IMG/VR virus record: IMGVR_UViG_3300047355_000120
Length of the DNA: 64,000 bases
Origin: an uncultured virus (IMG/VR IMGVR_UViG_3300047355_000120)
Taxonomy: Duplodnaviria > Heunggongvirae > Uroviricota > Caudoviricetes
Reading direction: 5' to 3' (one strand)
Position 1 is the stretch's first letter; every line of letters starts with the position of its first letter. Positions 15,126 to 32,800 of this stretch are shown piece by piece. Below the pieces are notes generated by a model, which saw nothing but the letters and a program-made list of their open reading frames with translations, made no database searches and was not told the origin of the DNA. The translations under genes and the position numbers were made by a program.

Positions 15126-15187
15126 TCAACGTTCGTTGGGTTGATCACTAACGGAGGAAATGAGTGGTTGGTGGGAGTTGATTATAT

Positions 15188-15221: not shown

Positions 15222-15235
15222 GTTACAGGAATTTT

Positions 15236-15259
15236 TGGGTATGGTGCCCATTTTTTTTT
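15236..15259 (+). terminator. second intrinsic terminator
   Basis: TGGGTA-TGG-TGCCCA followed by T9. Confidence 0.6.
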
Positions 15260-15267
15260 ATTCCTAG

Positions 15268-15884: not shown

Positions 15885-15887
15885 GTT

Positions 15888-16187: not shown

Positions 16188-16190
16188 AAT

Positions 16191-16574
16191 TTATTTTTTA
16201 CTTTTTAATAATACTTCTCCAGATGGTCTTTTATCAGGATTGTCTCTTGGAACAATTTTGTTATTGTTATTGTTGTTGTTATTGTTATTGCTTGAAGATC
16301 CATTAGATCCTTTACTAGGAGCATATATAGGTCTATTATTATAGTAACTTGGTTGATAATAATTATTATACCAGCCACCATAATATCTATTAGGATATGA
16401 TATAACGTTATAATAAACGTTTGGTTTAATCATATTAATAGGTAACCTTAGCGTATCACCTTGTTCTGTGACGGCTAAGACATGCGTAATTTTTATTTTA
16501 GGTTTAACGTGTGTTCCACAACTAGCAGCAGCCAGCATAGCCATCACACAAAGGGCAATTTTCCATAATTTCAT
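16191..16574 (-). CDS. lipoprotein with Tyr/Asn-rich low-complexity tail
   Basis: Lipobox AASC after hydrophobic leader; poly-Asn tract. Confidence 0.7.
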   Translation of the reverse strand: MKLWKIALCVMAMLAAASCGTHVKPKIKITHVLAVTEQGDTLRLPINMIKPNVYYNVISYPNRYYGGWYNNYYQPSYYNNRPIYAPSKGSNGSSSNNNNNNNNNNKIVPRDNPDKRPSGEVLLKSKK

Positions 16575-16693
16575 TTTTTCTTTTTAGATTTAGGTACACA
16601 ATTAGGTACTCTTCTGTTTCCTTTTTTCTTCATGCCGATCATTTCGTAACCAGTCCAGCATGGTCCTTTTTTTCCTTTTTTCTTTTTTTTCAT
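16571..16693 (-). CDS. small basic CWxGY...VPNCVP protein (40 aa), not in ORF track
   Basis: MKKKKKGKKGPCWTGYEMIGMKKKGNRRVPNCVPKSKKKK; overlaps both neighbours by 4 nt. Confidence 0.7.
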   Translation of the reverse strand: MKKKKKGKKGPCWTGYEMIGMKKKGNRRVPNCVPKSKKKK

Positions 16694-19600
16694 AGCTTTA
16701 ATTTTCCGGTTTTCTTTTTTGATTTTTTACTTTTAGGTTTTTTATATTTAGCATAAGGATCTAAACCTAAACTCCACTGATCCCATCCTAATGTTAAAGC
16801 TATAGTTTGCCAAGTTTCAGTTTGACTGTCTAACGCTACATCTAAGTTATTATATTTTTGAAATAATCTGTCTAACGGAATATTTGTTGTTGCTGACGTT
16901 AATTTACCTATAGCTAAATAAGCAGGGTTATCTAAACTTAACCCCATTTCCATTATTTCATCTTTATTATATTGATACGTTAATGCAGCAGATCTTAATT
17001 TATTTATTTTAGATGATATTGGAGGTGATAAACTTAAAGATTTTAATGCTGCAATTTCATAATCAGGTCTATTCTTTTTTGATTGTCTTACCGCTTCTAT
17101 TATAACATTTTTTACAGCAGCTGCTGCAGCACCACCAACACCTAAACCTCTTAAAAGTGAATCAGCCATACCGTTTCCGATACCTATAAGTTTGTCAGTT
17201 TCCTTTTTTTCTTTTTCATCTTCATCTTCTTCCCATATTAAAGCAAACAAAGCTTGCTGTAAAGCATTAAATGCAAAGTTTTGAACAGTACTATAATAGA
17301 CCAATTTAGACATGTTAGTTTTCCAATCACCTCTTTTATTTTTTAAATCTAAAAAAGCTTTTTTCATTAATCGAGAATATTGCATAGGTGTGTTAGCAAA
17401 AGCTAATATAACACGACCTAATGGTCCTGCTTGTTGTTGGCTAATTCTATCAGCTCTACTTGATTGCTGAGCTTCTTCAGTTAACTCTTGCCAGTCTAAT
17501 AAAGCTTTAGCTTTTGCATCAGCTTCTGACATACCTTGTTTTTTAAGAGCATTTATTCTGTTTCTTACCATACTTGCACCACCTATTGCAATAGCAAAAC
17601 TATCGGCAAGCTGTGTAGGTAAAAATCCTTTTGAAAGCAAATAACTTATAGCAGCTTTTGCCTTGTTTTTTGAACCTTTAACATAGTTAGCTATTTCACT
17701 AGCATTAACATCTGTTTTTAAACCAGATCGTCTTGATTTTAAAAAATCTGAGTTAAATAATTCTACAAAATCTGTCCAATATTGTTTTTGATTTAACAAT
17801 GTTTTAGCTACAGCAATTGGATTATTATCAGAAAAATTAATATAGTTTAATGCAGATATAGTTTGTAACACAGCAGATCTTGCATTAAAAAACATAATAG
17901 CACCAACTGAATTATTTATCCAATTCATAAAACTATTAACCAACCTATTAGTACCAAAGTTTCTATTAGTACCATTTTCCATACGGTACAACATATCCTC
18001 TAGTGCTTCTCTAAAATTACTACCGTATATACCTTCAATTTTATTTAAATTTTGTTCGCTAAAAATTTTATTTTTATTTTCAATCCATTGACTTAAAAAT
18101 TCTTTTCTTTTAAAATCTTTAGATTCTTGTTCAAGATCGCTTAAAATACTACCCGCATCCCAGTTATCTGTTGGTTGCACATAGCCATCTGGATTACCTG
18201 TTATAGAAGATATTTTTTTAGCATAATCTTTTATTCGTTCGTTTTTGTTAACAACATCAACTAATTTTTTAATATCATTTTTGTTAACTCCTGGAATATC
18301 ATAACCTGCTAAAGTCCACATATAAACTCTTATAGCGTCTTCATTTGTAAAACCTTTAAAAGTAGACTCTTTTTTTAACAGCTTATGGACATCTTTATAT
18401 TGATTTCTTACATCATTATATAAATTTCTAGTAGCATTTTGTGCTAAATTTAAAGCTTGCATTGCTTGGCCAAAGGGTTTTATTAAAGTTTTGTTAAAAA
18501 ACTCCATTTGTTTTTCACCTACTTTACCTTTGTCTAAAAACGAGTACAATAAACCTACAAAATCTTCAGCTGAAGGTGGTATAAAAAAAGTGTTTCTACC
18601 TATTTTAGCACCTAAAGCTTTTGATCTTTTTGGTGAATATATTTCATATATACCAACGCCTTTTGTTTGTTCTAGTATTTTATTAAATTCTCTACTCATA
18701 TCAGGTAAAGTACTTTCTCTAGCGTTTTCGTCAATTTCTACTTTAACATTAAAATCTTTTAACATTTTAGCAGCAAATTCTGATCTAGCAACCTCGTACA
18801 TTGTTTGATTTGTAAGCACACTATACGTATTTTTACCTATTTTAGGATCTAATAAAAATCTAAGATTTTTTAATCTGTTATTTCTACCACCTAGTTTATC
18901 TAATTTATCAGCTAATTTTTTTGGTATAAAAGATTGTTCAAAACCGTCTAATATACCTTGAATATCTTGATTAAATGTGTTATTAGCTATAGAATTTACT
19001 ATTGCCGATGTTAAATTAGATGCATCATAAACGTGTTCTCCTTTATAACCTTGTAAGTTTTTAGGAATATTTTGAGCACCATCAGTAAAATAAAAAGAAG
19101 TAAACGCTGCATAAGCCCTTGCTGAGAACACAGAGTTTGTTGTTAGTTGTAAATTTGTTATAACATCTTTAACAGCATCATCTCTAGTCATCTTACCATC
19201 TTTAACTTGTTTATCAACCCAGTCGTTCCAACTAGAATGCACAGCTTCCATTAATGCATGGCCTGCTTCTAATGCTTTTCTACCATCATTTCCAATAATT
19301 TTTCTTAATTTTGCAGCTTTTTCTTTCCCAGTTATGTTTTCATTAGCAATTTCAGAAGCAATATTTATTATGTGTCCAAGTTTATTAGCTGTTTTATTAG
19401 AAACCTCAAGATCACCTTTTATTTTATCAAACTTTTTCCATCTAGCTTTTGTTTCTGGGCTAGTAAATTCATCAAATTTATTATCTTTTATAGCTTGATT
19501 TATTTTATTTTCTTTAGTTTTTAAATTATCTTTATACGCTAAAGACCTAGCTCTATTTAATAAAAGTTTTTCTTTTGCAACACCATCTACTTCAACACCT

Positions 19601-22600
19601 TCAAAAGATTTTTGCAAAACAATAGATCCTTTAACTGATTTAGAATAAGCTATTTGTTCTTTTTCCGTTTGATTTGTAAAAAACATTAAACCTCTATCAC
19701 TACCATTATCTTTATATATTACTTTACTTATAATGTTAGAGTTAGCGTTTGAGTATTTTTGCGTAAGCAATGATTTAGGTAAATAGTTTAATACTTGATT
19801 AGCTACCTCAAAAGCTCTTTGTTGTCTTTTTAAATTAGTTAAAGTAACTCCATTTTCTGTTCTAGTAAGTTTATAATCACCGTCTTTTAAATATTTACTT
19901 AATACTTCATTTTTTTCAAAGTCTTTTTTAAGCCTAGCAAGATAACCATCGTTATTTATACCCTCAAGATTTATTTCTTTTTTTGCAAATTCATTAAAAG
20001 CTTGATCAAAAGCAGCAAACAATTCAACATTTTCTTGCATTGTTTCTACAGGACCTTGTAAAAGCTTTACTAAATCATCAGTTGACAAACCTTGACTATT
20101 AGCTATATCTACTAATTCAGAAGCTCTAGAATCATTATTAGGGTTATCTCTTTCAATCTGCTTAGCTATTATAGCTTGATAATTATCTTTAAGATCATTA
20201 TTCATTAACGATTGTATGCCTTCAAATCTTTGCCTAGCCTCTTTGTTATTCATTAACACATCCATTGTTTGATCAAAAGCAAGCTCAGCACCTAAGTTTT
20301 CTGCTAACTTATCTTTTCTTGTACCTTTTTTAGATCCTTTTATATCAAAAAATTCTAAAAATTGATCTTTTGTAGGCATTTTTTTAGCATACAAAGTTGG
20401 TCCTGTTTTTCTACCAGTATCTTTATTTAATTTGCCTTCAGCTATAGCTTTATCTACAGCTTTAGGTTTTAAATTTTTTTGTAATTCTTTAGTAAAAATT
20501 CTATTTTCAGGTTTAATTAACCTTTCCATTCTAACTAAAACACTTATTGGTAATTTTTGAACAATAGTTCTTCTAACTTGAGGATCAGATAAAAATCTTG
20601 TATAATTTTTTTTCGTACCCATTAAGTCTGCTAATGGTTTTTTTAATTCATTTGCAAAAGATTTTTCTAAATCTTTTCTAAAAGCTTTTTGATCTATTGA
20701 AGACAATCTAGTTCCTAACGTTTTAATAACAGCATTAACAACTTTTATTCTTTCTTTATCATTTAATTTTAATCTTTTTGCTAAATCTATTTGTGGTTTT
20801 TCTGGAGTTGTAGTTGATGTATTTTCTTCTGATGTATTAGTAGTAGTTCTGTCATCTATTTCTGAGGTAAATAAATTACCATCTTGACCTAAACTTTTTA
20901 ATATATTACCTAATCTACCTCCGCCAAATTTACCACCTCCATATAAAGCTTCTTTAATATATGCGCCGTATTCTCCTTTACTAGGATTATAAGTTTTGTT
21001 TAATCTAACTAAAACTTCTTCCTGAACAGCAGCTTTAAATTCTTCTCTTGTTATTCCTAGACCACTTTTAAATTTATCATTAACAAAATTGTTTACAACA
21101 CCTTGATTGTTTAAAAATAAATCATTTTTAATATCAATTGCTTGTTGATCAGTAGCTGTTTTTAAAGCTTCGGATAATTTTTTATTTTCTTCTACTATTG
21201 ATTCCCTTTCACCTGCTCCTTTTTTACCAGGACTTAAATTTGCATCTATTTTTATTCCAGCACCTAACTTTCCTTTAAAAAATGTTTTATTATAATTTTT
21301 TAAAAACTCAAACGCCTGTTCTCCTGTTTCTATTTTAGCAGCGTTAATGGTTTCATTACCCATGTTTAAGTTAAACTTAAAAAAATCATTTAAATCATTT
21401 GCTATTCTTTGCCAAAATGTTTTATCTTGTCTATTCCAATTTATATTTCCTAATGATATTTCATCACTAATACTTGTAAAAACTTCTTGGGCATAATTTG
21501 CTTTAGCTTGCTGTTTTTGTTTTTTAGTAGATTTTTTATCATTTAAAACTTTATCTCTTTTTTTAGCATAATTATTTAATCTACTTTTTATTTTACTTAC
21601 AACTCCTGCTGAAATATTTTTACCATCATTGTTGTTTTGCTCTTCTAAATATGTAGTAAGTTTTTCACCCATATTTATAACTTGCTCTTTAGTCATAGTT
21701 CTGTCTAGAACAGCGTGTAGAACTTCGTGAGCAACACTAACTGATGATGCGGCTCTACTATCGTCTATTAGTTGTAATGATGCGTTAGAGTTAATGTTTT
21801 CAGCACTAACAAAAATAGTTTGTTTTTTACCAGGCTCATATTTTGTTATATATGCCGATGTATTAGCTGATGCAAATTTATCTAATATTTTCTTTTTTTG
21901 ATTTTCAAATTCAGAAGGTAAATTTGTTGGATCTGTATTACTATCTAAAGTAATTAACTCTAAATTAGAATCAGGATCTAATGATTTTAAAAAATTAACA
22001 CCTCCTTCAAGAGAGCTTTTAGCATTTCTAACGTAGTCAGTCATTGTAGTAACTTTATCGTCAGATTTTAATTTGCCATTTTCTTTTAGATAATCTATTT
22101 CAGCATCAATAGCTTTTATTTTATCACCAGCTACTTTAACTAAAGCATCGTTACCTTGTATATATCTTTTTGTTGCTAACAAGTCGGCAACTCTTTGCTT
22201 AACACTTAATGAAGCTCTTTTACCTTTTAAAACCTCTTTAGTAGATTCAGCTATGTAACCGTTTTCTAATATTTGATTTTGTTCTTCTACTGTTATAGCA
22301 TTTCTTTTTATTAGACCATCAGTAAATTTTTTTAATTGCTCTACAGAATAACCACCATCAATAACAGAGTTTAAATTAGTTCTAAGATTGTCTGCCATTT
22401 TAACAGCTTGATCTGTCATATTAGCTCTAGCAATTTTTAAACCTAAGTTTGACGCGGTTCCAAATTGACCCCCAATCATTTCATCAAATATTTCTGTTAC
22501 TTTTATACCTTCACCTGATGATAATTGAGCAAGAAGTTCTCCACCTCCCTCAAACAAAGGTTCAACAACTGTTTGACTGACTAAACCTAAACCTATTTGT

Positions 22601-24561
22601 TTTGCTGTAGAAGCTAATGGCGCAACAAATGCACCTGCCATTTTAGCACCTAACACATTCATTATAGCTATAGGAACTCCTCTTTTAAAACCTAACTCAT
22701 TAGCTTTTTCTCTTATTTCAGGATTTCTTAATCCTTTAACTAATTCTTCAGCATTTTCCATATCAATTCCCGCTTCACTAAGAGTTTGGCCATATGCGTT
22801 ACCAACTTCCATACCTAATCCTGTTAAACCTTGCCATGTCATTAATCCATAACCTAAACCTGTAACAGCACCTGGTAGACCAGCCGATGCACCACCGATA
22901 GCGGCACCTCCACCAACAACAGGTATTATCATTTCAGTTCCTGTAGAAAAAAATTGACTTAAAGAATTACCTGTTAAACTTGCTAATATTTCTATAGGAT
23001 TAGTACCTAATATAGCTGTTTTTTCAGTTAAAGTTTCAGCGTTCATATAAGCCTCGTAAACTTCTGAATTTAATATACCGTTGTTTTTAGCATTTGTTAA
23101 TGCAATGTTTTCACTTACAGCAGCCATTTCTTCATCATTGTCTAAATCAGTAACACCTAAAACAATTTTATTATAAGCTCTATTATTTTTACCGTTTAAC
23201 CAACCTTTTATTGTTACGTTGATTGTGCTGAGTAAAGAATTGTTTTCATATTCACCTCTCATTTTAGAAACTGTACCATAGTCTAACATTAAATTTAAAC
23301 TATCTGAAGCCTCTTGAATTCTTGATATTTGTTTATTTAAAACTTGACTATCATTTAAAATCTTATTTAAAGGTGATGAATATTCTTGCAGATCGTTTAT
23401 TTCAAGACTAAGTTCGTATAATTTTTCTCTTTCTTCACTATTTTTAGGTTTATAATCAGATAAACTATTTATATCGCCTCCAGTTATATTTTTAATTTCT
23501 TTATTAAGTCTATCGAATTCTTTATTAACATTGTCAACGATTGTTTTACTACCTTTTAAATCTACTTTATATGCTTCCATCATTGCTTTATCTAATAAAC
23601 CAATGTCTTTTTCTAAAGCTCCTGAATCATTTTTTAATGTTTTTTGAGTTTCAAGAACATCTTCAGCAAATTCTAAATCTGCTATTTTTTTAATACGTTG
23701 ATACTCTTCGTTTCCTTTTAAATCTAAGTAACTAGAATTTTTATCTTCTAATTCTTTTTTAATTTTTTCAACTTTATATTTTTTTATTTTACCATCTTCA
23801 TCAAAGTAATCTGGGTAATTTTTTATATCTTCAGGAGTACCTTGATAGTTTTCATTAACAACTTTTCTATCTATACCACCAATATCTCTTCTTTGTTCAG
23901 AAACAGAGGTTCCACGCATTAATACATCATCAATAAACTTTAGATCTTTTTCATTTTTTTTAATGTTTTCATCAACATATCTTATTTTTTCAAAATCTAA
24001 ACCATTGTTTGCATAAACTATATCTTCATAAGCTCTTAAAAGTGCGTCCTCTCCAGTGTGTAACCTATCGTTAGCACCTGTATAACTACCGTCTTCGTTT
24101 TTAACAATATTTTTTTTAAAAGTTTTCCAGTTTAAATCTTTATTAGGATTTAGCAAAGGTTTATCAATTTTATAATCGTTAAGTTTATTTAATTCAACTT
24201 TTCTTTTTTCTAGTTCTTCTTTTTTTCTTTCAGATCTAAAAGCAAAGTCAACTAAACCGTCGTACTCCGCTCTCATATCTCTTAATTCTTTTTCATATTT
24301 TTTTGGATCTGTTTTATAAAGTTCATAATTTTTTTGAGCTGTATCCAAAGAAATGTTTTCCGAATCTGAACCCGTACTCTCGGGTGCTGCATTTACCTGA
24401 TCCACATCCGCACCCTGGGCTTGTGAACCGTTTGTCTTTCCCTCATTAGCAGTTTTAAATTCTTTAATTTTTGCTGTATACTGAGACTCTCTATCTTTAT
24501 CAGATAAATTATTATCTGCTAAAATACTATTTAAGATCTGTTTTTGTTCTTCTGTAAGCAT
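16690..24561 (-). CDS. giant (2623 aa) putative internal virion/ejection polyvalent protein
   Basis: Last of three helical genes after the tail genes; Gly/Ala hydrophobic region; HEVLH zincin motif. Confidence 0.7.
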   Translation of the reverse strand: MLTEEQKQILNSILADNNLSDKDRESQYTAKIKEFKTANEGKTNGSQAQGADVDQVNAAPESTGSDSENISLDTAQKNYELYKTDPKKYEKELRDMRAEYDGLVDFAFRSERKKEELEKRKVELNKLNDYKIDKPLLNPNKDLNWKTFKKNIVKNEDGSYTGANDRLHTGEDALLRAYEDIVYANNGLDFEKIRYVDENIKKNEKDLKFIDDVLMRGTSVSEQRRDIGGIDRKVVNENYQGTPEDIKNYPDYFDEDGKIKKYKVEKIKKELEDKNSSYLDLKGNEEYQRIKKIADLEFAEDVLETQKTLKNDSGALEKDIGLLDKAMMEAYKVDLKGSKTIVDNVNKEFDRLNKEIKNITGGDINSLSDYKPKNSEEREKLYELSLEINDLQEYSSPLNKILNDSQVLNKQISRIQEASDSLNLMLDYGTVSKMRGEYENNSLLSTINVTIKGWLNGKNNRAYNKIVLGVTDLDNDEEMAAVSENIALTNAKNNGILNSEVYEAYMNAETLTEKTAILGTNPIEILASLTGNSLSQFFSTGTEMIIPVVGGGAAIGGASAGLPGAVTGLGYGLMTWQGLTGLGMEVGNAYGQTLSEAGIDMENAEELVKGLRNPEIREKANELGFKRGVPIAIMNVLGAKMAGAFVAPLASTAKQIGLGLVSQTVVEPLFEGGGELLAQLSSGEGIKVTEIFDEMIGGQFGTASNLGLKIARANMTDQAVKMADNLRTNLNSVIDGGYSVEQLKKFTDGLIKRNAITVEEQNQILENGYIAESTKEVLKGKRASLSVKQRVADLLATKRYIQGNDALVKVAGDKIKAIDAEIDYLKENGKLKSDDKVTTMTDYVRNAKSSLEGGVNFLKSLDPDSNLELITLDSNTDPTNLPSEFENQKKKILDKFASANTSAYITKYEPGKKQTIFVSAENINSNASLQLIDDSRAASSVSVAHEVLHAVLDRTMTKEQVINMGEKLTTYLEEQNNNDGKNISAGVVSKIKSRLNNYAKKRDKVLNDKKSTKKQKQQAKANYAQEVFTSISDEISLGNINWNRQDKTFWQRIANDLNDFFKFNLNMGNETINAAKIETGEQAFEFLKNYNKTFFKGKLGAGIKIDANLSPGKKGAGERESIVEENKKLSEALKTATDQQAIDIKNDLFLNNQGVVNNFVNDKFKSGLGITREEFKAAVQEEVLVRLNKTYNPSKGEYGAYIKEALYGGGKFGGGRLGNILKSLGQDGNLFTSEIDDRTTTNTSEENTSTTTPEKPQIDLAKRLKLNDKERIKVVNAVIKTLGTRLSSIDQKAFRKDLEKSFANELKKPLADLMGTKKNYTRFLSDPQVRRTIVQKLPISVLVRMERLIKPENRIFTKELQKNLKPKAVDKAIAEGKLNKDTGRKTGPTLYAKKMPTKDQFLEFFDIKGSKKGTRKDKLAENLGAELAFDQTMDVLMNNKEARQRFEGIQSLMNNDLKDNYQAIIAKQIERDNPNNDSRASELVDIANSQGLSTDDLVKLLQGPVETMQENVELFAAFDQAFNEFAKKEINLEGINNDGYLARLKKDFEKNEVLSKYLKDGDYKLTRTENGVTLTNLKRQQRAFEVANQVLNYLPKSLLTQKYSNANSNIISKVIYKDNGSDRGLMFFTNQTEKEQIAYSKSVKGSIVLQKSFEGVEVDGVAKEKLLLNRARSLAYKDNLKTKENKINQAIKDNKFDEFTSPETKARWKKFDKIKGDLEVSNKTANKLGHIINIASEIANENITGKEKAAKLRKIIGNDGRKALEAGHALMEAVHSSWNDWVDKQVKDGKMTRDDAVKDVITNLQLTTNSVFSARAYAAFTSFYFTDGAQNIPKNLQGYKGEHVYDASNLTSAIVNSIANNTFNQDIQGILDGFEQSFIPKKLADKLDKLGGRNNRLKNLRFLLDPKIGKNTYSVLTNQTMYEVARSEFAAKMLKDFNVKVEIDENARESTLPDMSREFNKILEQTKGVGIYEIYSPKRSKALGAKIGRNTFFIPPSAEDFVGLLYSFLDKGKVGEKQMEFFNKTLIKPFGQAMQALNLAQNATRNLYNDVRNQYKDVHKLLKKESTFKGFTNEDAIRVYMWTLAGYDIPGVNKNDIKKLVDVVNKNERIKDYAKKISSITGNPDGYVQPTDNWDAGSILSDLEQESKDFKRKEFLSQWIENKNKIFSEQNLNKIEGIYGSNFREALEDMLYRMENGTNRNFGTNRLVNSFMNWINNSVGAIMFFNARSAVLQTISALNYINFSDNNPIAVAKTLLNQKQYWTDFVELFNSDFLKSRRSGLKTDVNASEIANYVKGSKNKAKAAISYLLSKGFLPTQLADSFAIAIGGASMVRNRINALKKQGMSEADAKAKALLDWQELTEEAQQSSRADRISQQQAGPLGRVILAFANTPMQYSRLMKKAFLDLKNKRGDWKTNMSKLVYYSTVQNFAFNALQQALFALIWEEDEDEKEKKETDKLIGIGNGMADSLLRGLGVGGAAAAAVKNVIIEAVRQSKKNRPDYEIAALKSLSLSPPISSKINKLRSAALTYQYNKDEIMEMGLSLDNPAYLAIGKLTSATTNIPLDRLFQKYNNLDVALDSQTETWQTIALTLGWDQWSLGLDPYAKYKKPKSKKSKKKTGKLKL
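24382..24442 (-). promoter_or_regulatory. putative -1 programmed ribosomal frameshift element
   Basis: In-frame G_GGA_AAG, 6-nt spacer, stems GGTTCAC/GTGGATC and GGGTGC/GCACCC forming an H-type pseudoknot. Confidence 0.6.
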
Positions 24562-24576
24562 GTTTATAAAATTTAA

Positions 24577-26526
24577 TTATCTTCTTGACTCTCTTTCTTC
24601 TTCTAACTCTTTTAATATTCTTTCATTGTCTTGGATCATAGCTTTATATGTTGGATTTTTTATAAGTCTTTTATATTTAGCAATATCTTTGTCTAATTCT
24701 TTTATACTAGATTTAGCTGCTATGCTTCCAACCCTAAAATCTTTTTGTTCTCCACCATCTTTAAAGAAATTAGTTATTTCTGACTCTAATTGCTCTTTAC
24801 TTATTCTACCTGTATTAGTGCCTGGAAGTCTAGTTAACGCGGCATCTTCATCTTTAGACATATCAACCTTTTGAACAAAAACTGGGTTTTCACCATTCTC
24901 TTTAAGTTTTTCAAGTTTTTCCGCACTTTCGGTTTCTGTGTTGTCTGTGTAATACTTAATAGCTTGATCAATGTTTAAAGCTTTATAACCATCTGGTTTT
25001 CTTTTATTAATAACTTTAACAACTTCTGAAGAACTTAATGAAGTTCCTGGAACAGAATTTATGTCGCTTATTATAGGAGCGAATTGATTAGGTGGTTTAT
25101 TTTCTTCTTTTTCAATACCATAGTATCTTTCCCAGTCAGTACCAGGTATTAGGCTAGGTTCATCATACGCACCCGCTAAAGCTAATGCTTTGGATTTCAT
25201 CCATCTTTTAATAGACTCTTCACTTTCACTAGTAAATATATTATCACCTGTTTTATCTTTGTTTAACTCTGGAATTTGTAATTCAACTAAACTACGTTCT
25301 ATTTTTATCTTACCATTACTGTCTCTTAAATCTTTAGATTCAGTTATTAACATACCATCACTATCTACAAAGGCATTATAATAAAGTTTACGATCTTTCA
25401 TTATAACGTCACCTTTTTTAAGTTCAGACATAATAGAATTAGTTAAAGTAACGTTACCGCCTTTTAATGTAGATAAATTATGATATTGCTGATCAACAGC
25501 ATTTTGTGCTATAGGATTTAAACGGCTAATTAGATTAAAAGTTGCTTCACCAGTTTCTAATTCTCCTTGTCTTGTAGGGTCTGGTTGATAAACTCTTTGT
25601 GGATCAGATTTATAACTAGGATTTATTGTATTACCTTCAGAGAAAGGTGTGTTAGAGCCGTCTGTATTTTCAGGATCATTAGTATTTGTATTATAAACAT
25701 CAAGTAATAAATTATTTATATTAGCATCTGTAGATAACAATGGACTGTTATAAGGGTTTGTAGGGTTTGCGTAGTCTTTAGCAGCGTTTGTTAAGTTTAT
25801 AAAATATGAATCAGAAAAGCTAGGTGGACCGTCCTCTCCATACTCACCATACATAGGTACGTCACCAAGATAACCAGCTTCTTTTTTATTTATTTCTTTA
25901 ATGCTTTCGCCTTTTGCTTGCATTCCTAACTCTAATCTACCTGTAGCATTGTTTTTATTTATACTATATGTTAATTCACCTGGCAATGTTTTAGCGCCTA
26001 TATATGTAGCTGCTTTAAAAAAAGCATTAGTATCACCAGCTGCTTTTCCATTTGCATAAGCTTCAGAAGCTTCTCCAAATAAAGCATTTACATTTTCTAA
26101 AATACTAGGTAGTTCTCCAGATAAAATTTCAAAATTTTGTATAGTTTTTAAATCTTCTTCTTTACCTTCGTAATTTTTTCTTCTATAGTTTTTCTTATTT
26201 CTTTTTAAAGCATCTCCATACTCTTTTAATTCTAAAGACATAGCTTCTTTTAAAGAATCTATATTTGCTCCTTTTAAACCTTTTTCTTCAATAGATGCGT
26301 CTTGTGATATAGTTTCTTTAGTTATAAGTTCATCAACCTTGTTGTCAATTATATTATTAGTTTCTAATATTTTATTATATTTTTCTACACCTTTAGCTTT
26401 TGTTTTAGCCGCGCTAAGCATACCCTTAGCAATAGCGCTTCCTACATTTGCAGCTGCTTTACCTAACAACTGACCTGTTACTGTATCGACGCCTACATTT
26501 ACATTTGGATTATCATATGCTCCCAT
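24577..26526 (-). CDS. putative internal virion/ejection protein (649 aa)
   Basis: Synteny; amphipathic Gly/Ala N-terminus. Confidence 0.55.
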   Translation of the reverse strand: MGAYDNPNVNVGVDTVTGQLLGKAAANVGSAIAKGMLSAAKTKAKGVEKYNKILETNNIIDNKVDELITKETISQDASIEEKGLKGANIDSLKEAMSLELKEYGDALKRNKKNYRRKNYEGKEEDLKTIQNFEILSGELPSILENVNALFGEASEAYANGKAAGDTNAFFKAATYIGAKTLPGELTYSINKNNATGRLELGMQAKGESIKEINKKEAGYLGDVPMYGEYGEDGPPSFSDSYFINLTNAAKDYANPTNPYNSPLLSTDANINNLLLDVYNTNTNDPENTDGSNTPFSEGNTINPSYKSDPQRVYQPDPTRQGELETGEATFNLISRLNPIAQNAVDQQYHNLSTLKGGNVTLTNSIMSELKKGDVIMKDRKLYYNAFVDSDGMLITESKDLRDSNGKIKIERSLVELQIPELNKDKTGDNIFTSESEESIKRWMKSKALALAGAYDEPSLIPGTDWERYYGIEKEENKPPNQFAPIISDINSVPGTSLSSSEVVKVINKRKPDGYKALNIDQAIKYYTDNTETESAEKLEKLKENGENPVFVQKVDMSKDEDAALTRLPGTNTGRISKEQLESEITNFFKDGGEQKDFRVGSIAAKSSIKELDKDIAKYKRLIKNPTYKAMIQDNERILKELEEERESRR

Positions 26527-26545
26527 AATTTATTTTTATTTATTT

Positions 26546-27319
26546 TTACTTTGGAAAAGGCCCATCATAATTTGGATTAGAATATACACCAGCCATTTTA
26601 GTTGCATTAGCTGAAATACCTGCACCAGCTATACTTGACAAACCACTAATCATACCTGTTAATGCAGCTGTAGAAGCTTGATTTGCAGCCATTTCTTGAT
26701 TAGCTGCTCTATCAGCTAAACCAGCAACTCTATTCATTTTTTGAACTTCTCTACCTTCTCTAGTGTTAAACATAAACTGTTTACCAGCGGCATCTAATCC
26801 TTGCATTCTTTGGCCTTCACTTATTTGTATACCCTGTATTCTGCCTTTTTCTTGCATCTGGATCATTTCCATTTTTTGTTCACCTTGAGCTTTTAGTTTC
26901 TCATTTTGTGCTTCTTGAGCTTCAATACTAGCGGCAACACCTTTTTTACTTTGTAATGCGGCTTGGGCTAAAGCAGTTGCTCCACCAGCACTAGAACCTG
27001 TAGCTCTTAATGTATCTAATGTATTAGCTAAAGCTATATCACTTTGTTCCATTTGTATTTCAGCTGACCTTGTAGCAACACCAAGATTAGCAAAAGGATT
27101 ACTTATCATACCGCTTAAATCCTTAGCCATAGAACTTAAATCTTTAGCACCAGAATAAGGGTTTATAATTTTTTGTCTATTTCTTTCTAGTCTAGATAAT
27201 TCCCTTTGCTGTTTTTCTCTTTCTACACGAGCTCTTCTAGCTGCTCTTTTAGCTGAGCCCATACCAAATAAACCTGAACCTAGGCTTAAAAGTCCACCAC
27301 CTACTATTGCCCAAGACAT
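26546..27319 (-). CDS. putative DNA pilot/ejection protein (257 aa)
   Basis: Gly-rich hydrophobic termini, Gln/Ala-rich coiled coil. Confidence 0.6.
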   Translation of the reverse strand: MSWAIVGGGLLSLGSGLFGMGSAKRAARRARVEREKQQRELSRLERNRQKIINPYSGAKDLSSMAKDLSGMISNPFANLGVATRSAEIQMEQSDIALANTLDTLRATGSSAGGATALAQAALQSKKGVAASIEAQEAQNEKLKAQGEQKMEMIQMQEKGRIQGIQISEGQRMQGLDAAGKQFMFNTREGREVQKMNRVAGLADRAANQEMAANQASTAALTGMISGLSSIAGAGISANATKMAGVYSNPNYDGPFPK

Positions 27320-27322
27320 ATA

Positions 27323-27781
27323 TTATGATTTAAGTTGTTTATTGTTTTCATATTCTAAATAATTTTTTGCTATAATTTCGTTCTCAAGATCTGATAAGTT
27401 TTCATTATTATTTGGGTTTCCATAAATATTAACAAAAATAGAATCTTCTAAAGCTCTTATTAATCTTTGAGTACCTCCGGAAGCTTTTACATAACAAGGT
27501 GCTATATATTCTTCTACACCCTGTTCGGTTTCAACTAATAACTTACCTGTTAATAAAAACCATATATGATCATGTTGATGTATTTTACCCAACACAAACG
27601 TATCTTTTTCCATTTTCATTTCCCTTACATAAACACCATGTGCAAACATATGTTTTAAAGGAAACTTTTCACTATCGCCAGTTACTAATTCATTATTGTT
27701 TTCAGCTTGATATTTTAATTCATTTTCTAAATTTACTAAAGATTTTCTATAATCTATAGTAGATTTACTTAATTTATTCAT
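27323..27781 (-). CDS. cupin-fold protein
   Basis: H.FAHGVYVRE...GKIHQHDH..FLLTG. Confidence 0.7.
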   Translation of the reverse strand: MNKLSKSTIDYRKSLVNLENELKYQAENNNELVTGDSEKFPLKHMFAHGVYVREMKMEKDTFVLGKIHQHDHIWFLLTGKLLVETEQGVEEYIAPCYVKASGGTQRLIRALEDSIFVNIYGNPNNNENLSDLENEIIAKNYLEYENNKQLKS

Positions 27782-27791
27782 TTAATTTAAT

Positions 27792-29780
27792 TTAATAAGA
27801 TGATTCTACTATCGTAGACGATATTGCAAATAATTCTTTTTTAACATTATTATAAACTCTATTGTCTAATGTCATTTTAACTGTTGAAAAGAATCCTTTT
27901 ACACCTGACATATCAGGTCCAAAGATAACCTCACCTTGTGTTGCTGTTGAATTATTTATAAGATTTGCAAAATACTTATCTTCTTTTTTCTTAAAAGTGT
28001 TTTGCCATATTTGATTTTCAAGAGCTGTTAAATCTGTTTTAAACACGTATTCAGTTATTGGTAATGTAACATCACCAGAACTAGATGTCATATTTTCTAA
28101 AGCCCAGCCCTGACTTCCTTCGTAATTAATTGTTTTAAAGTTTTTAACAACTGAAGGATTTGAATTTAATATTAAAGTAACTGTTGAAGGATATATTAAA
28201 CCATAATAGTTACCGTAAGTATTTAAAGCGTTGTGATAATATATATTACCATAAAAGAAACTATAAAAATCACTTTTTATACTTGTTATATATGAAGGTC
28301 TATATTTATAAAAACTAGTCCAACCTAATATAGACTCATCAAAAGAAGCAGTGCTATAAGGTTTTAATTGAAAACTTATATTTGCACCAGCTGGAATAGA
28401 ATTAACTAATTCACAAGTAATAGCTATTGTTGAAAAAGAAATAACATCTCCAGAGTCTACACCCCAACCAGATTGATCAGTGTTAACCCTAGTTGATGCA
28501 CCGTTATAAGTTGGATATAAAGTTGTTGTAACTAATCCTCTTGATACTCCAGTTGTTGTATTTAAAGATTTTAAACCTGTTGTTATAACAGTTGTTAAAT
28601 CTCCTGCAAAAGTAAAATGACCTCCATTAACATTGTTTACTAATTCTACTTTACTTGTAACTGTATAATCATAACTTGAGCTTTTAGTTATACCATAAAA
28701 CTCACCAGTATTAGTATCAAAAATTTCCATGCCACTAGTTAATACACCTCCGGATGTTGCCAGAACAACTGTAACATCGTTACCAGCGCTATAACCTACA
28801 CCAGAATATGTATCTTTAGTAACTAAGTTACTAGGAGTTTCTTGTATAGAAATTATATAATTTTTACTATGATTATCCCACGCTCCAACTATATTGTTAG
28901 CTAAATTTAATCTATCTCTAAAAAAGTCATGCATGCCATAACTTGATATTTCTGTTATACCATCATGTGATAATCTTAATACACAACCTCTTTTTCTGTC
29001 TGTAAAATATTTTCTGTAACCATATACAGCAAAACTATTAGGATCCGTAGATATACCATATTCACCTGCATAAGCTATTATTTGACCTATAACTAATGGC
29101 CTAGATGTAACAGTAGCGTTACCCTCTGCAGAATATATTGCATCTTTATCTATTAAAGCTCTACTTACTTTATCTTCTTGAAATATAATTAAATTAGTAT
29201 CTTCAGCGTAAAGTCTTTGTATAGATCCGTTAGCTGGATCTGCTGATTTAGTTATGTCTAAACCTACAGAAAACTGATTAGTATCGTTAACACCAGTTCT
29301 AGAGTTGAATATACCAGAATATATAAGCGAACTAATTCTATGTTGCTGTGCAAATGTATCTTCAACTAAAAAAGCTTTAACACCATAATCTAATGATGTA
29401 TTGTTATACCCTCCTCTAATCCTAGCTTCTTCTATATACCAGTCTGTTGCCGTGTCAGAATCATAATCTTGAGGTATGTTAGCATTAGGAGCAACGCCAG
29501 TAAATTTTATTTGATCATTAAGAGTTACTGTTTCTGAAGAGCTTATTGTTATATCTTGATTGTTAGCTGCTACTGAAACCACGGTTACAGTTCCAGTAAA
29601 AGGATTTGTAACATTTGTAACAACTTGACCTGCGCCTATTTTAGTGCTAGGGTTTTGTAAGTTTATTATATTAGCTGCACTAGCGTTAGCTGGTAAAGTA
29701 ACAGTTTCTATATCTGTAATACTCTTGATTTTTTTTAACCAGAATGAATTAAAGTAGTTTACTTCTAATGTAGCTGCCAT
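27792..29780 (-). CDS. tail structural protein (stabilisation/nozzle-like, C-terminal part)
   Basis: IYSG..NS.TGVN..NQF, GEYGIS..P.SFA.YG...YFTD..RG.VLRLS.DG, FKTINYEG. Confidence 0.7.
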   Translation of the reverse strand: MAATLEVNYFNSFWLKKIKSITDIETVTLPANASAANIINLQNPSTKIGAGQVVTNVTNPFTGTVTVVSVAANNQDITISSSETVTLNDQIKFTGVAPNANIPQDYDSDTATDWYIEEARIRGGYNNTSLDYGVKAFLVEDTFAQQHRISSLIYSGIFNSRTGVNDTNQFSVGLDITKSADPANGSIQRLYAEDTNLIIFQEDKVSRALIDKDAIYSAEGNATVTSRPLVIGQIIAYAGEYGISTDPNSFAVYGYRKYFTDRKRGCVLRLSHDGITEISSYGMHDFFRDRLNLANNIVGAWDNHSKNYIISIQETPSNLVTKDTYSGVGYSAGNDVTVVLATSGGVLTSGMEIFDTNTGEFYGITKSSSYDYTVTSKVELVNNVNGGHFTFAGDLTTVITTGLKSLNTTTGVSRGLVTTTLYPTYNGASTRVNTDQSGWGVDSGDVISFSTIAITCELVNSIPAGANISFQLKPYSTASFDESILGWTSFYKYRPSYITSIKSDFYSFFYGNIYYHNALNTYGNYYGLIYPSTVTLILNSNPSVVKNFKTINYEGSQGWALENMTSSSGDVTLPITEYVFKTDLTALENQIWQNTFKKKEDKYFANLINNSTATQGEVIFGPDMSGVKGFFSTVKMTLDNRVYNNVKKELFAISSTIVESSY

Positions 29781-29804
29781 AATTTATTATCACTTATTTT
29801 TTAC
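29781..29804 (-). promoter_or_regulatory. putative late promoter (GTAAAAAATAAGTGATAATAAATT)
   Basis: Intergenic; shares the motif seen at 52211 and 46211. Confidence 0.45.
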
Positions 29805-29812
29805 TATTATTA

Positions 29813-32800
29813 CTAAGGACTAAATGGATATAAGTATATATTAGGTGAACATCCATTTACTGATGAACAAGCTTGTACGTAGCATGAAGTCCAAGGATTA
29901 GGTACGTATACTTTTGCATCACTAACATTAAATCTAGTAGAAAATTTATATTTAGTAGTTCCACCATTGTTATAAGGCGATGAACCTGCTGTTGTTATAA
30001 AACCTTTATAATTACTTACACCACCTCCTGCGTCTGCAAATGAATAAACCGTAGATAAAGCTGATGATGTATAAAATTGTGTCACATATTGACCGTAAGG
30101 CACGTGTGAGTAAGCATAAGAAGATCCAGCTATAGCATTGGGACAGTAATAGCTGTTTGAACCAGTTAAATCTAATGAATATTTGTAAGATTGAGCAGTT
30201 CCACCTGTAACGTTAGATCCGTTCTCGATAACACAAGTGCTATAATATAAGTCGTTTGAATTTACCCAGCAAGCCATTGTTTCAGCTTGTGTTGGAGCTG
30301 TTACGCTTCTTGCATTAAAAGCTGCAATCGCATATTCACCCGGTTGATTATAAGCTAAAACTCTTTGATCGTAAAATACACCGAATTGACCTGTTGCACT
30401 TGTTGTAAGATCTACTTTGATAGCACCAGAACTAGGTGTTCCTGTGTTTGAATTATCTATTGTAAAGTTATTTATATCAGCAATAGCAGCCCAAGAAGAA
30501 CTACTATTTGTTCTATGCCATACCCTCCATGTTACATCTGCATCTAAACCTGCTGGACCAGATGTTGACCATGTAAAACTAGCATTCATAGATAAAGACA
30601 TTGTGCCCTGTGTTAATGCGCTACCAATTTTAAACAGTGTGTTTGTTTGAGACGCGTCTCCTGTTTGTGCTGTGCTTGGAACTACAATAGCATTTGATCC
30701 GTTAAAAAAATCACTAGCTGTTAATGTATTGTCAGATAAATACCAAACGCCTGTTATAGGTCCTGTGGCTTGTCTTTTTGTTATTAATGCATTTTCTATA
30801 GGCATACCCGGAAGATTTGTGTTTATAGGACCGGTTATACAATTTGATTCTATTCCCGCATTAGCAGGTTGAGGACCAACTATAATTATTTGATTAGAGT
30901 TTGAGTTTAAACCACCAACATTAGAAACTCCATTACAATCTTCTATTTTTAAAACCAAAGTATGTTGACCACTTGGAGTGTTATTAGCTACCTGTGTTAT
31001 ATTACCTCCATTTGTTCCGCTTTGTACAATATCAAAAGAAGGCTGACCATTTACTCCAGTAGGATTACCAGATACAATAGACCATTTAAGTTCGCTAGTA
31101 GTGTTTCCAGTATTACCACTGTTTGTTCCATTGACAGCAGTAGTATTTTGACCATAAGCAGTCATACCATTGTTTACATCACCAGTTTGATCAACAGTAA
31201 CGTTTATTGTTGGTAAAGGTGATTGAGTAAAAGAAGGTACAATATTTGTTAAACTACCTTGAAATTGTATAGTTTGTTGTTCGTTAGGAGCAAGCAAAGA
31301 TGTTGAATCAACTTTTATTGTTATTGAAAATGTAAAAACATCATTAGTAATACTGTTTTCATTATATATAAAGTATTGATTTGATGGAGTTACATTAGGT
31401 GTACCAGGAGTTAAACTCGCTTGCGATGTTAATATTCTATAAGCTTTATAAGTAGTACTAGTAGGGTCAGAATCTTGTTGAATATAAAATTTACCAGTTT
31501 GATCACCTAAAGGAGAACTTACAGCAAAAGTAATACAGCTAGTAGGATAAGCTGAATCAAAAGCCGTGCCCTCATTAGATACAGGATAAAAATAATCTGT
31601 TATAGGGTGTCCCGGTGCATCACTTTCTAGTAACTCAAAATTTTGAGCTGTAAAACCAACTGGTCCATCATACCCAGTAAGAACATCTGCATTTAAATCC
31701 GCTATCAAACCTACAGTTCCTGTTTCCCAAAATATATCTAATAATGACTCTACAGGTTCAGTTTCATATATAGCCAAAAAAGGCTGCATGTTAAGGTGTG
31801 TGTTTGCTGAATCAGTTTCTACACCTATTGTTAAAGTAGTTGATAACCTTGCTATTAAAGGTTTAGTATCAATTTGATATAAATTTTCTTGTCCTTGTGG
31901 CCCAAGATTATCAAATTTCATGTTTGAATCTTCAGTTGTAGCTATGCTAATAGCTGTATCTGTTAAATTAGCAGGGTAAAATTGACTATTGTTTTTAGCA
32001 GCGTTTGCTGATGTTCCAACAATATTATTAGTAACTCTACCATATAACTGAACAGAACTTCTAAATTGTTTTTGATCAGGCCCAACTTCTTGTAAGTCTC
32101 TAGGAACTTTGTTTATATTATCATTTATTAAAACTATATTTGCTGTTTTATTTTCTTCGTTTTGAGGAAAAGGTATAGGTGTGGAAGATGTAGCTCCAGA
32201 TATGCTAGGATAACCGTTTAATATACCAGGTAAATAAACATTGTAATATTCTTGTTCTGTTTGTTTAACAACAACCTTATAAGAATACCAACCAATAGGA
32301 TTTATTTTATAAGCAAATTTTTTATCTGCAGTAGGACCTATTAGTGTATCATTTAAATAACTTGAATTAACTCTACCATCTGTTGTTATAGTATATGCTG
32401 GACCTCCAGATACATTTGTAACTTTAACAAAATCTATATATTCACCTCTTAAATAATCATCTACTGCAGGAACAGCAACATTACTTGGATACGTAGTGCT
32501 GTCTAAAGTAAATGTATAATCAGTATTAGTTATAGTAGCTTCTGGTGTTTGTTTTACAGCAAAACCACTGACATTAGTAGGAACAGCATACAACCCTGGT
32601 TCTCCTGATTGTGTAGAAGTTCCTGTTGTAAAATCTGGATAACCATTAAAACCGGAGCTAATAGTATCTGTTACAGAAAGTTGTAATGTTTTTCCAAACC
32701 AATTTTTTATAGTTCCTTGATTTGCTGACGTGTTGTATGGTAAGTACAAAGTAGATCCTAAATAGTCTTGTGCTACTTCTGCAGTTACTGGTGATAATAT

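Follow-up and report, generated by a model that had tools for sequence, protein, structure and literature searches.

A probable programmed -1 frameshift signal near the 5' end of a giant, putative virion-protein gene of uncultured Flavobacteriia phages

Known -1 shifts and the locus under study

Well-described programmed frameshifts of phages are few and are found chiefly in tail-chaperone and capsid genes. In alphavirus 6K/TF and cardiovirus 2B*, -1 shifts give a small transframe protein with a conserved C-terminus and end downstream translation; these viruses of eukaryotes have RNA genomes and express polyproteins, and their genes have no relation to the one considered here. The 6K of SFV is named in PMC6771820. 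The tailed phage lambda makes G and GT, two proteins with a common N-terminus, at a set ratio of about 30:1 (PMC5009743) by a -1 shift on the heptamer G_GGA_AAG (PMC3296357, Table 1). This heptamer is highly shift-prone in E. coli, where A_AAG is the minimal -1 site (PMC5009743). In E. coli dnaX (tau/gamma), the shift is truncating, takes place on a site ending in A_AAG with RNA structure downstream, and leaves a short product that keeps the common N-terminus (PMC5009743). Non-canonical N_NNA_AAG shift sites are represented by Bacillus cdd (A_CGA_AAG) and IS1222 (G_CGA_AAG) (PMC5009743).

The locus described here lies in a stretch of 64,000 nucleotides from an uncultured virus of the Caudoviricetes (IMG/VR record IMGVR_UViG_3300047355_000120), hereafter the window. 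Comparison with its relatives makes it highly likely that the locus carries a genuine programmed -1 ribosomal frameshift signal of the classical kind in a new place. A preliminary description had called its heptamer the same as that of lambda G-T, which agrees with the published table (PMC3296357, Table 1), and both shifts belong to the late/structural region of a tailed phage. The lambda shift, however, takes place close to the 3' terminus of a small gene, ahead of the tape-measure gene, and extends G to GT, whereas that proposed for the window comes 42 codons into a gene of 2623 codons in a podovirus-like Flavobacteriia phage, is accompanied by a pseudoknot and is truncating, as the preliminary description had recognized. 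The lambda-type tail-chaperone arrangement (3' end of a small gene, tape-measure gene downstream, product extension) was not found at the window locus. Like dnaX, the locus is bacterial in setting, is predicted to truncate its product at an A_AAG site followed by RNA structure, and would leave a short product with the common N-terminus. It differs in having an H-type pseudoknot in place of a Shine-Dalgarno-like element plus hairpin, and in a shift at codon 42 that is followed by a conserved 37-residue transframe peptide. The cdd and IS1222 sites belong to other genes, and the window has a canonical heptamer; they resemble the A_GTA_AAG, A_GCA_AAG and G_GAA_AAG sites of the relatives in that only the A-site Lys tRNA re-pairs well. 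No published description of a frameshift in this giant gene was found in the literature searched, a limited collection.

Slip site, pseudoknot and -1 reading frame in the window

The features are as follows, all on the - strand.

16690..24561, - strand: giant gene, 2623 aa, zero frame (ORF call); putative virion polyvalent-type protein
24436..24561, - strand: codons 1-42, common to the giant protein and the frameshift product; small N-terminal domain, probably helical
24443..24445, - strand: TGA stop in the -1 frame, abutting the heptamer on its 5' side
24436..24442, - strand: slippery heptamer G_GGA_AAG, Gly41 in the P site and Lys42 in the A site; conserved at the nucleotide level across the family
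24326..24442, - strand: -1-frame ORF of 39 codons from GGG, with 37 transframe residues after Lys42; conserved Cys-rich plus aromatic/Gly peptide
24430..24435, - strand: spacer, 6 nt; among 44 relatives that have a pseudoknot, 43 show a spacer of 5-7 nt
24422..24429, - strand: 5' arm of stem 1, 8 nt (pseudoknot fold)
24410..24415, - strand: 5' arm of stem 2, 6 nt, inside the stem 1 loop; covariation counted
24399..24406, - strand: 3' arm of stem 1 (pseudoknot fold)
24382..24387, - strand: 3' arm of stem 2; covariation counted
24341..24379, - strand: best-conserved motif of the -1 ORF, downstream of the pseudoknot; modelled beta-hairpin
24323..24325, - strand: TGA stop in the -1 frame, 37 codons past Lys42, ending the 79-aa product

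The heptamer is in the X_XXY_YYZ register, the final G of codon 40 being followed by GGA and AAG as codons 41 and 42, and it occupies exactly the bases (24442-24436) given in the preliminary description. Since the giant gene has 64 in-frame heptamers of this form, the heptamer by itself is unremarkable; it is set apart from the others by what follows downstream. The 6-nt spacer and the two interleaved stems of an H-type pseudoknot had been placed correctly to the base, with one amendment: stem 1 stands where it was drawn (24429-24423 with 24405-24399), but its length of 7 nt falls short, and an additional A-U pair (24422/24406) brings it to 8 bp. Stem 2 (24415-24410 with 24387-24382) has 6 bp, and loops L1, L2 and L3 comprise 6, 3 and 11 nt, respectively.

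The summed stem energy of -17.7 kcal/mol is the most stable value downstream of any of the 63 in-frame heptamers scored, the next-best pseudoknot reaching -11.1 kcal/mol, and it was attained by 1 of 100 dinucleotide shuffles of the downstream 85 nt (null -3.9 +/- 4.5). Nested minimum free energy folding is uninformative, as expected for a pseudoknot (z 0.0 for 75 nt of the window; family mean -0.98, with 7 of 47 below -2). Rfam covariance models gave no match at E up to 1 on either strand of positions 24250-24600.

The -1 ORF begins at the slip site and lacks a start codon, because the TGA lies directly 5' of the heptamer: zero codons separate the two, and there is no ATG, GTG or TTG between them. 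From the heptamer to the -1 stop the GC content is 0.458, against 0.292 for the whole giant gene, which bears out the GC-rich patch noted earlier. The predicted product of 79 residues is likewise confirmed by the TGA at 24325-24323.

Slip site and pseudoknot together very probably yield this product at the side of the giant protein. Ribosomes with Gly41 (GGA) in the P site and Lys42 (AAG) in the A site would have stem 1 of the pseudoknot, 6 nt downstream of the slip site, at their mRNA entry channel. A fraction would slip one base back onto the codons GGG and AAA, read 37 codons of the -1 frame through the pseudoknot region and end at the TGA. Because some ribosomes would slip in this way, the gene would give a 2623-aa and a 79-aa protein that are identical over their first 42 residues. 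We infer that ribosomes slip here, how efficiently they do so and what the small protein is for.

Conservation among the relatives

At least 578 IMG/VR stretches encode relatives of the giant protein. Our sample consisted of 119 homologous giant genes with complete 5' ends from uncultured marine phages, reduced to 105 unique N-termini, of which 47 representatives at no more than 85% nucleotide identity served for the entropy and pseudoknot tests. With a profile of the -1 peptide, 62 of the 105 genes gave a match (E<1e-3); every match lay in the -1 frame, with none in the other two. The cassette is thus present at about 60% of the sampled 5' ends, and it is not universal in the family; a few of the 43 homologues lacking a strong match have variant or weak forms. 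When 54,161 six-frame ORF pieces from 149 sequences were searched, 72 of 73 matches lay in the assigned giant gene, no more than 500 nt from its start; the sole exception (L098) is a gene whose assigned start looks wrong.

At the conserved -1 ORF the slip sites comprise 29 G_GGA_AAG, one G_GGA_AAA and 28 other NNA_AAG; three genes with a strong profile match (L087, L131 and L144) have no site by the NNA_AAR rule. Where Gly occupies the P site, the heptamer is G_GGA_AAG in 29 of 30 cassettes and G_GGA_AAA in the other. The preceding codon encodes any of six residues (GAG, GTG, TCG, CCG, TTG, GCG), its final base always being G. Elsewhere in the same genes, G_GGA_AAG occurs at only 5 of 1831 Gly-Lys pairs, codon usage predicting 0.5%, and AAG, which accounts for 18.7% of Lys codons overall, is found at 58 of 62 shift sites. 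These counts argue that the heptamer is kept at the nucleotide level beyond coding need. There are four main heptamer classes in the family. A_GTA_AAG, A_GCA_AAG and G_GAA_AAG replace G_GGA_AAG in 26 of 62 relatives; the first two account for 19 of the 62 sites, and the P-site tRNA cannot re-pair well there. A scan of synonymous sites against relatives of 61-94% identity did not single out the patch (12/14 and 13/15 codons conserved against the 61-65% relatives, 0.67-0.71 gene-wide), a result that is uninformative either way as these mosaic genes are far from saturated.

The -1 frame also bears the signature of a coding sequence. The median distance from the nearest upstream -1 stop to the shift site is 2 codons, and in 60 of 62 genes no ATG, GTG or TTG intervenes, so that in these 60 the -1 ORF is reachable only by a shift. 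An internal ribosome-binding site with its own start was considered and rejected, an ATG following the heptamer in only one relative. The predicted product has a median length of 79.5 aa and falls between 68 and 100 aa in 56 of 62 genes. Among the 47 representatives, entropy at positions 1, 2 and 3 of the -1-frame codons is 1.02, 0.93 and 1.42 bits. Three blocks, two of them past the pseudoknot, give BLOSUM pair scores of 1.7-2.9 when read in the -1 frame and of 0.4-0.65 when read in the zero frame; this comparison favours the -1 frame because the alignment was made from its translation. The variability by codon position marks the -1 frame as the selected one, and the -1 ORF is under purifying selection. 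The same coding signature contradicts the idea, accordingly rejected, that a recombination linker or a plain protein motif would by itself explain the conserved nucleotides.

An H-type knot with stem 1 beginning 4-9 nt past the site can be formed in 44 of 47 representatives, with 34 distinct 5' arms for stem 1 and 28 for stem 2. In 42 of the 47, no more than 5 of 100 dinucleotide shuffles were equally stable (mean -18.05 vs -5.36 kcal/mol). The same number of shift sites reached -15, compared with 0.2% of the 502 in-frame NNA_AAG sites examined elsewhere in these genes.

Covariation of stem 2 was counted on a short realignment of 22 sequences selected for a GGRUGY-type arm; a MAFFT alignment of the 22 whole downstream regions had the window-type sequences out of register and was discarded. 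Here 89.6% of cells are paired (26-50% in slid controls), and 9 cells show double changes compared with 2.2 +/- 1.2 in shuffles, none of 500 of which scored as high. The equivalent of stem 1, counted on 17 other relatives with a single terminal alignment column as the only gap, is paired in 94.1% of cells compared with 79.3% (slid controls 32-45%) and has 22 double-change cells versus 6.3 +/- 1.7, again with 0 of 500 as high; these lineages differ from that of the window, and the stem register is somewhat shifted in them. Both stems are kept in the nine close relatives of the window while the loops vary, the only two stem changes, G-U to A-U and U-A to U-G, preserving the pairing; for the window's own stem 1 this amounts to a single, one-sided change that preserves pairing. 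Compensatory changes thus lend support to both stems among the relatives, and the alignment of 5' ends proposed in the preliminary description has borne it out on heptamer and stems alike.

One could suppose that the pseudoknot is real and serves another purpose, such as ribosome slowing, mRNA stability or translational control, and that the -1 ORF is untranslated, its apparent conservation coming from constraints on the RNA and on the zero-frame peptide. Stems and Cys codons of the -1 peptide do overlap, so that RNA could account for part of the peptide conservation, and the zero frame has a recurring linker motif, Gly-Lys...Ser-Leu-Asp/Glu. Yet it is past the pseudoknot that the -1 peptide is best conserved, with scores of 2.7-2.9 in its own frame and 0.5-0.65 for the zero frame, and variability there peaks at third codon positions of the -1 frame. 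Nor would such a purpose account for the uncommon codon ending in G ahead of GGA, for the seldom-used AAG, for the nearby upstream -1 stop or for the stop a few codons past the conserved motif, and we give this explanation very little credence.

The small product, the giant protein and their meaning

The 79-aa product consists of the 42 shared residues and a C-terminal part with three Cys followed by an aromatic/Gly-rich motif. It had been proposed as one of two outcomes that the shift would produce a short Cys-containing isoform sharing the N-terminus, a proposal that gains support from the conservation of the transframe peptide; the other outcome proposed, that the shift might set the copy number of the giant protein, is a conjecture. 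AlphaFold2 places strands at residues 20-27 and 30-37 of the 39-residue peptide (pLDDT about 70-76) in a model that is weak (mean pLDDT 59) and of low confidence outside the hairpin. Pfam gave no match to the transframe peptide of the window and only scattered single matches (E >= 0.004) to 45 aligned peptides, and tblastn of two -1 peptides against GenBank phages gave none at E up to 10. These searches mark the transframe part as a new peptide, Cys-rich and with an aromatic/Gly part, that matches no known family. Among 50,697 GenBank phage records, no cultured phage was found with either the C-terminal domain of the giant family or the -1 peptide.

A library of 1.84 billion proteins held 19 small predicted proteins (41-127 aa) that have the peptide in one continuous frame, with N-terminal domains of the same kinds as in the cassette genes. 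They would fit expression of the -1 ORF without slippage at the heptamer, by independent initiation, transcriptional slippage or one-base indel variants in the population. Against this, the missing start codons upstream in 60 of 62 genes include the case of the window, several of the single-frame proteins change frame some codons past the heptamer, as with random indels or assembly errors, and IMG/VR relatives of one of them show the ordinary two-frame layout. To our knowledge, runs of three such as GGG and AAA are also below the length of known transcriptional slippage. The 19 ORFs may be indel artefacts or genuine unshifted forms, and expression without slippage seems to us most improbable as a general explanation. 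Least probable of all is a chance heptamer with chance complementarity in a GC-richer patch coding for a Gly/Ala/Pro-rich linker, to which the many heptamers of the gene, the GC content of the patch and the nested folding score of the window would be congenial, but which is contradicted by every comparative result: heptamer, -1 ORF, coding signature, pseudoknot stability and covariation.

The neighbours of the giant gene are podovirus-type structural genes, and the phage group is podovirus-like and infects Flavobacteriia. In the giant protein, an HExxH motif near residues 945-949 has H945, E946 and H949 invariant, and the C-terminal ~650 aa are conserved and all-alpha. Searches of Pfam and PHROG with the giant protein found no match, and no Pfam LPD domain reached threshold in it; a sequence-profile search of the PDB gave one chance-level match only, and a Foldseek search of the C-terminal domain against the PDB nothing at E <= 0.001. 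Against BFVD, the C-terminal domain aligned by Foldseek with pieces of phage polyvalent/structural proteins (E 1e-6 to 1e-4, TM about 0.4), named PolyVal ART, MuF C-terminal or LPD-containing, and ESM-Atlas neighbours with LPD39 or LPD38 are leads only. The giant protein is accordingly described as putatively resembling phage polyvalent virion proteins in its modelled structure; its size and its synteny with the giant gene of elemoC_14-1A (see below) would be compatible with this. In GenBank phages, blastn with the 5' region gave no match and tblastn with residues 1-700 one weak match (residues 465-698, 27%), while a single-protein search of viral contigs brought up no relative. The syntenic giant gene of the Flavobacterium phage elemoC_14-1A, annotated as a structural protein of 3694 aa, was searched for the cassette, which was not found in it.

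One possibility, which we put forward tentatively, is that the small protein is a fixed-ratio partner of the giant polyvalent-type virion protein and docks through the shared N-terminal domain at the same assembly or packaging site. Any such shift would stop the costly synthesis of the giant protein early as well. A second suggestion, which we hold no more firmly, is that the transframe product founds a new and widespread family of small phage proteins, with the frameshift as a stoichiometry device for packaging or ejection of the giant protein. If so, its members would begin with an N-terminal domain that varies and continue with a Cys cluster and an aromatic/Gly beta-hairpin, and they would be encoded nowhere but in the -1 frame, overlapping the 5' end of giant genes for polyvalent-type virion proteins. 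A fixed number of small proteins would then be made for each giant protein, for entry into or ejection from the capsid, which would give podovirus-like phages their own version of the G/GT logic known from tail assembly in tailed phages.

In conclusion, the relatives of the window point to an unreported place and an unusual outcome for a programmed shift, namely an early, truncating event in a giant, putative virion-protein gene that would give a conserved small protein. Such a transframe protein is invisible to any gene caller, and each of these genomes would lack one real protein in its annotation. The natural series of 34 stem-1 arms, 28 stem-2 arms and four main heptamer classes offers a ready test set for recoding on Bacteroidota-type ribosomes. 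For phage biology, the small protein may provide a lead to how giant cargo proteins are handled.

Anatomy of the signal in the giant gene

The mechanism proposed for codon 42 of the giant gene is that of a textbook -1 frameshift signal. When the preliminary description, made by a model from the sequence, was rechecked on the - strand, all of its coordinates were correct.

Features of the signal and its gene
24561-16690, -: giant gene, an ORF of 2623 codons
24445-24443, -: -1-frame TGA directly 5´ of the heptamer
24442-24436, -: slippery heptamer G_GGA_AAG in the X_XXY_YYZ register, with GGA as codon 41 and AAG as codon 42
24435-24430, -: spacer
24429-24423 with 24405-24399, -: stem 1, one further pair being possible
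24415-24410 with 24387-24382, -: stem 2, interleaved with stem 1
24325-24323, -: -1-frame stop TGA that ends the product

The -1 frame is open for 37 codons past Lys42 and then meets TGA, which agrees with the 79-residue product originally predicted; before the shift site, the -1 ORF holds no ATG, GTG or TTG. The gene contains 64 in-frame slippery heptamers, and a slippery heptamer alone therefore means little. Nested folding of the 75 nt downstream is no better than that of shuffles (z 0.0). When 63 in-frame heptamers were scored in a search for H-type pseudoknots, this heptamer was the best at -17.7, followed by one at -11.1, and 1 of 100 dinucleotide shuffles of the downstream stretch was as stable. 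The patch is GC-rich because the zero frame over the overlap encodes a linker of Gly, Ala, Pro, Thr, Ser and acidic residues. The anatomy of the signal is established: it is real and had been read correctly.

A conserved -1 reading frame

Full-length relatives of the giant protein form a graded series of 94, 84, 78, 65, 63 and 61% identity, beyond which lies a very large family with mainly the C-terminal quarter in common. No homologue was found in 50,697 GenBank phage records, and at least 578 IMG/VR stretches match the C-terminal region. Homologue DNA came from IMG/VR and metagenome contigs. Loci (L-numbers) were accepted when the ORF could be traced upstream to a stop and first ATG, giving 119 genes with 105 unique N-termini; excluded were C-terminal fragments and ten ORFs running off the contig (L022, L026, L037, L038, L039, L046, L058, L100, L111 and L128). 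A few assigned starts (L074, L098 and L118) are probably wrong.

The peptide read in the -1 frame after the shift site has the consensus [GS]-K-[DA]-K-R, a variable stretch, C-x-C-G-x2-C and then [RK]-[YW]-G-[FI]-x-[FI]-G-[KR]-[YW]-F-[FI]-G-[FI], with the stop a few codons on. A profile built from 56 such peptides matches 62 of the 105 genes at E<1e-3, the 56 training sequences by construction, always in the -1 frame and in neither of the others; weaker -1-frame matches come from six more genes. Searched against 54,161 six-frame ORF pieces from 149 sequences, it places 72 of 73 matches within the first 500 nt of an assigned giant gene, the sole exception being L098, whose assigned start is apparently wrong. 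A variant cassette (shift site, pseudoknot and -1 ORF) that the main profile misses or scores weakly is seen in L027, L029, L048 and L089: it has G_GGA_AAG and a pseudoknot (tested for L048), and its shorter -1 peptide has only the aromatic/Gly motif, with Cys at the C-terminal end.

Among 47 representatives of at most 85% nucleotide identity, variability peaks at the third codon position of the -1 frame (1.42 bits vs 1.02 and 0.93), corresponding to position 2 of zero-frame codons. In BLOSUM pair scoring the -1 frame has 1.7-2.9 and the zero frame 0.4-0.65, two blocks beyond the pseudoknot included, with the caveat that the alignment was built on the translated -1 frame, which favours it. Upstream of the shift site, the closest -1 stop is at a median distance of 2 codons, and in 60 of the 62 genes no start codon separates the two. 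Predicted products have a median length of 79.5 residues (68-100 in 56/62 genes). Taken over these genes, the comparison shows a -1 ORF with the marks of purifying selection, reachable only by a shift.

The transframe peptide matched no Pfam family. The AlphaFold2 model made with 45 aligned peptides is weak (mean pLDDT 59); it folds the aromatic/Gly motif into a beta-hairpin (residues 20-37, pLDDT ~70-76). The N-terminal domains that precede the cassette are of several unrelated types, so that the cassette is better conserved than the domain to which it is attached; its movement or persistence seems not to depend on the upstream domain. Within the first 150 codons of L072-L148, the short N-terminal domain before the same cassette is of at least five kinds, unrelated to one another.

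A profile search of 1.84 billion proteins returned 19 small ORFs (P0123-P0141, 41-127 aa) that end in the peptide; a single continuous reading frame covers the N-terminal domain and this transframe-type peptide. In some of them the frame switches several codons past the heptamer, as indel errors would give, and one has IMG/VR relatives with the ordinary layout. These ORFs may be either indel or assembly artefacts or the products of phages that encode the small protein without frameshifting.

Selection on the shift site and pseudoknot

The closest relatives keep the patch almost base for base, with 12/14 and 13/15 identical-residue codons unchanged vs 0.67-0.71 gene-wide; they are not decisive, since most synonymous sites are kept throughout the gene. 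In distant relatives the N-termini are unalignable, yet the Gly-Lys pair that opens the patch is still nnG GGA AAG, the codon before GGA being GAG, GTG, TCG, CCG, TTG or GCG. A comparison of 5´ ends, along the lines suggested in the preliminary description, bears out conservation of the heptamer: where Gly occupies the P site, the shift site is G_GGA_AAG in 29 cases of 30 and G_GGA_AAA in one, as against 5/1831 G_GGA_AAG at other Gly-Lys pairs of the same 105 genes, where codon usage (third-position G 10.5%, GGA 25.6% of Gly codons, AAG 18.7% of Lys codons) predicts 0.5%. These counts show the imprint of nucleotide-level selection on the heptamer.

The remaining shift sites are A_GTA_AAG (12), A_GCA_AAG (7), G_GAA_AAG (7, among them the window's 61-65% relatives), A_AAA_AAR (5) and A_ATA_AAG (1), and the A-site codon is AAG in 58 of all 62. 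Atkins et al. (2016; PMC5009743) name A_AAG as the minimal -1 site, describe G_GGA_AAG as highly prone to shifting in E. coli, and state that sites such as A_CGA_AAG and G_CGA_AAG are in natural use. At the 19 non-canonical A_GTA_AAG and A_GCA_AAG sites (L074-L076, L081, L097, L108, L110, L114, L116, L125, L137, L138 and the A_GCA_AAG group), an A invariably stands directly 5´ of the P-site codon. Re-pairing in the P site does not account for this, which may reflect a bias towards A-ending codons, relatedness or an E-site effect.

With ungapped stems of at least 5 bp and stem 1 starting 4-9 nt past the shift site, an H-type knot is found in 44 of the 47 representatives, 43 of them with a spacer of 5-7 nt. 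Stem 1 is 5-11 bp long, with 34 distinct 5´ arms, and stem 2 is 5-8 bp long, with 28; what is conserved of the predicted pseudoknot is its form rather than its sequence. In 42/47, no more than 5 of 100 dinucleotide shuffles were as stable, the mean summed stem energy being -18.05 vs -5.36 kcal/mol. A value of -15 was reached at 42/47 shift sites; among 502 NNA_AAG sites lying in frame elsewhere in these genes, 0.2% reached it, the control stretches being less GC-rich (0.33 vs 0.50).

Stem covariation, another check proposed at the outset, revealed compensatory changes in both stems. Among 22 of the 47 representatives, picked for a GGRUGY-type arm and realigned with MAFFT, 89.6% of stem 2 cells pair (26-50% in slid controls); G-C becomes A-U in five sequences and C-G becomes U-A in two, and there are 9 double-change cells vs 2.2 +/- 1.2 in shuffles (0/500 as high). 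For the equivalent of stem 1 in 17 other relatives, whose alignment has a single gap of one terminal column, 94.1% pair vs 79.3%, with slid controls at 32-45%; double changes occur in 5 of 10 pairs and number 22 cells vs 6.3 +/- 1.7 (0/500). The window's own stem 1 lies outside this count because stem 1 shifts register between lineages. Its nine close relatives have only two stem changes, both pairing-preserving, and variable loops. The pattern of substitution shows a predicted pseudoknot kept through compensatory change.

The giant protein and known systems

The giant gene lies in the late structural gene block of the window.

Other genes of the late structural block
44876-42669: terminase
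42672-40297: portal
39064-37586: major-capsid-like virion protein
29780-27792: protein with a crassvirus muzzle C-terminal domain
Same block: virion protein of 1500 aa

Judged by its capsid protein, the window is closest among cultured phages to Flavobacterium phage vB_FspP_elemo, Cellulophaga phages and Maribacter phage Panino (43-48% identity). In elemoC_14-1A, the gene at the syntenic position encodes 3694 aa and carries the annotation 'structural protein'. Pfam and PHROG searches with the giant protein gave no matches. An HExxH motif at residues 945-949 (window ~21718-21732, -) is kept across the family, with His945, Glu946 and His949 invariant in 12 closer homologues and nearly so in 20 that are distant, which hints at a metallopeptidase domain of the zincin type, though one that matches no Pfam model. 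The C-terminal ~650-676 residues (16690-18720, -) are conserved and all-alpha (model mean pLDDT 65.5). By fold they resemble pieces of phage proteins in BFVD (E 1e-10 to 1e-4 beyond their own family) named PolyVal ADP-ribosyltransferase, MuF C-terminal domain protein, large polyvalent protein-associated domain protein and 'structural protein'; PDB searches with the sequence profile of the giant protein and the fold of this domain found nothing. We treat the giant gene as encoding a putative polyvalent-type virion protein because of its synteny with a structural gene and the BFVD fold likeness, not by family assignment.

Elsewhere in the window, two large tail-fibre-like genes (53671-58230 and 58234-60981, -) both have a Peptidase_S74 intramolecular chaperone domain at their end. 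Genes for a ribonucleotide reductase large subunit (13395-15125, +) and a primase-helicase (7781-9496) lie on the strand opposite to the giant gene, and the GC skew switches sign at ~15-16 kb, the point of divergence between the two gene blocks. The nearest virus record among those covered, G001, has 55% of the window's sampled 31-mers in common and no match to 14000-33000; it therefore differs, or is cut off, in the giant-gene region.

The identity of the heptamer with that of lambda G/GT, as first described, is confirmed by Table 1 of PMC3296357. A tail-chaperone shift extends the product and is placed at a small gene's 3´ end, before the tape-measure gene, a defining layout that the window site fails. 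In consequence dnaX is nearer, its product being truncated, as is predicted here (passages in PMC5009743). No Rfam family matches the site, and the literature searched, mostly abstracts and of limited coverage, held no description of a frameshift in such phages or in polyvalent proteins. Actual shifting by ribosomes, its frequency and the role of the 79-residue protein are inferences. Alphavirus TF and cardiovirus 2B* are small conserved transframe products, and the window site would resemble them in making one.
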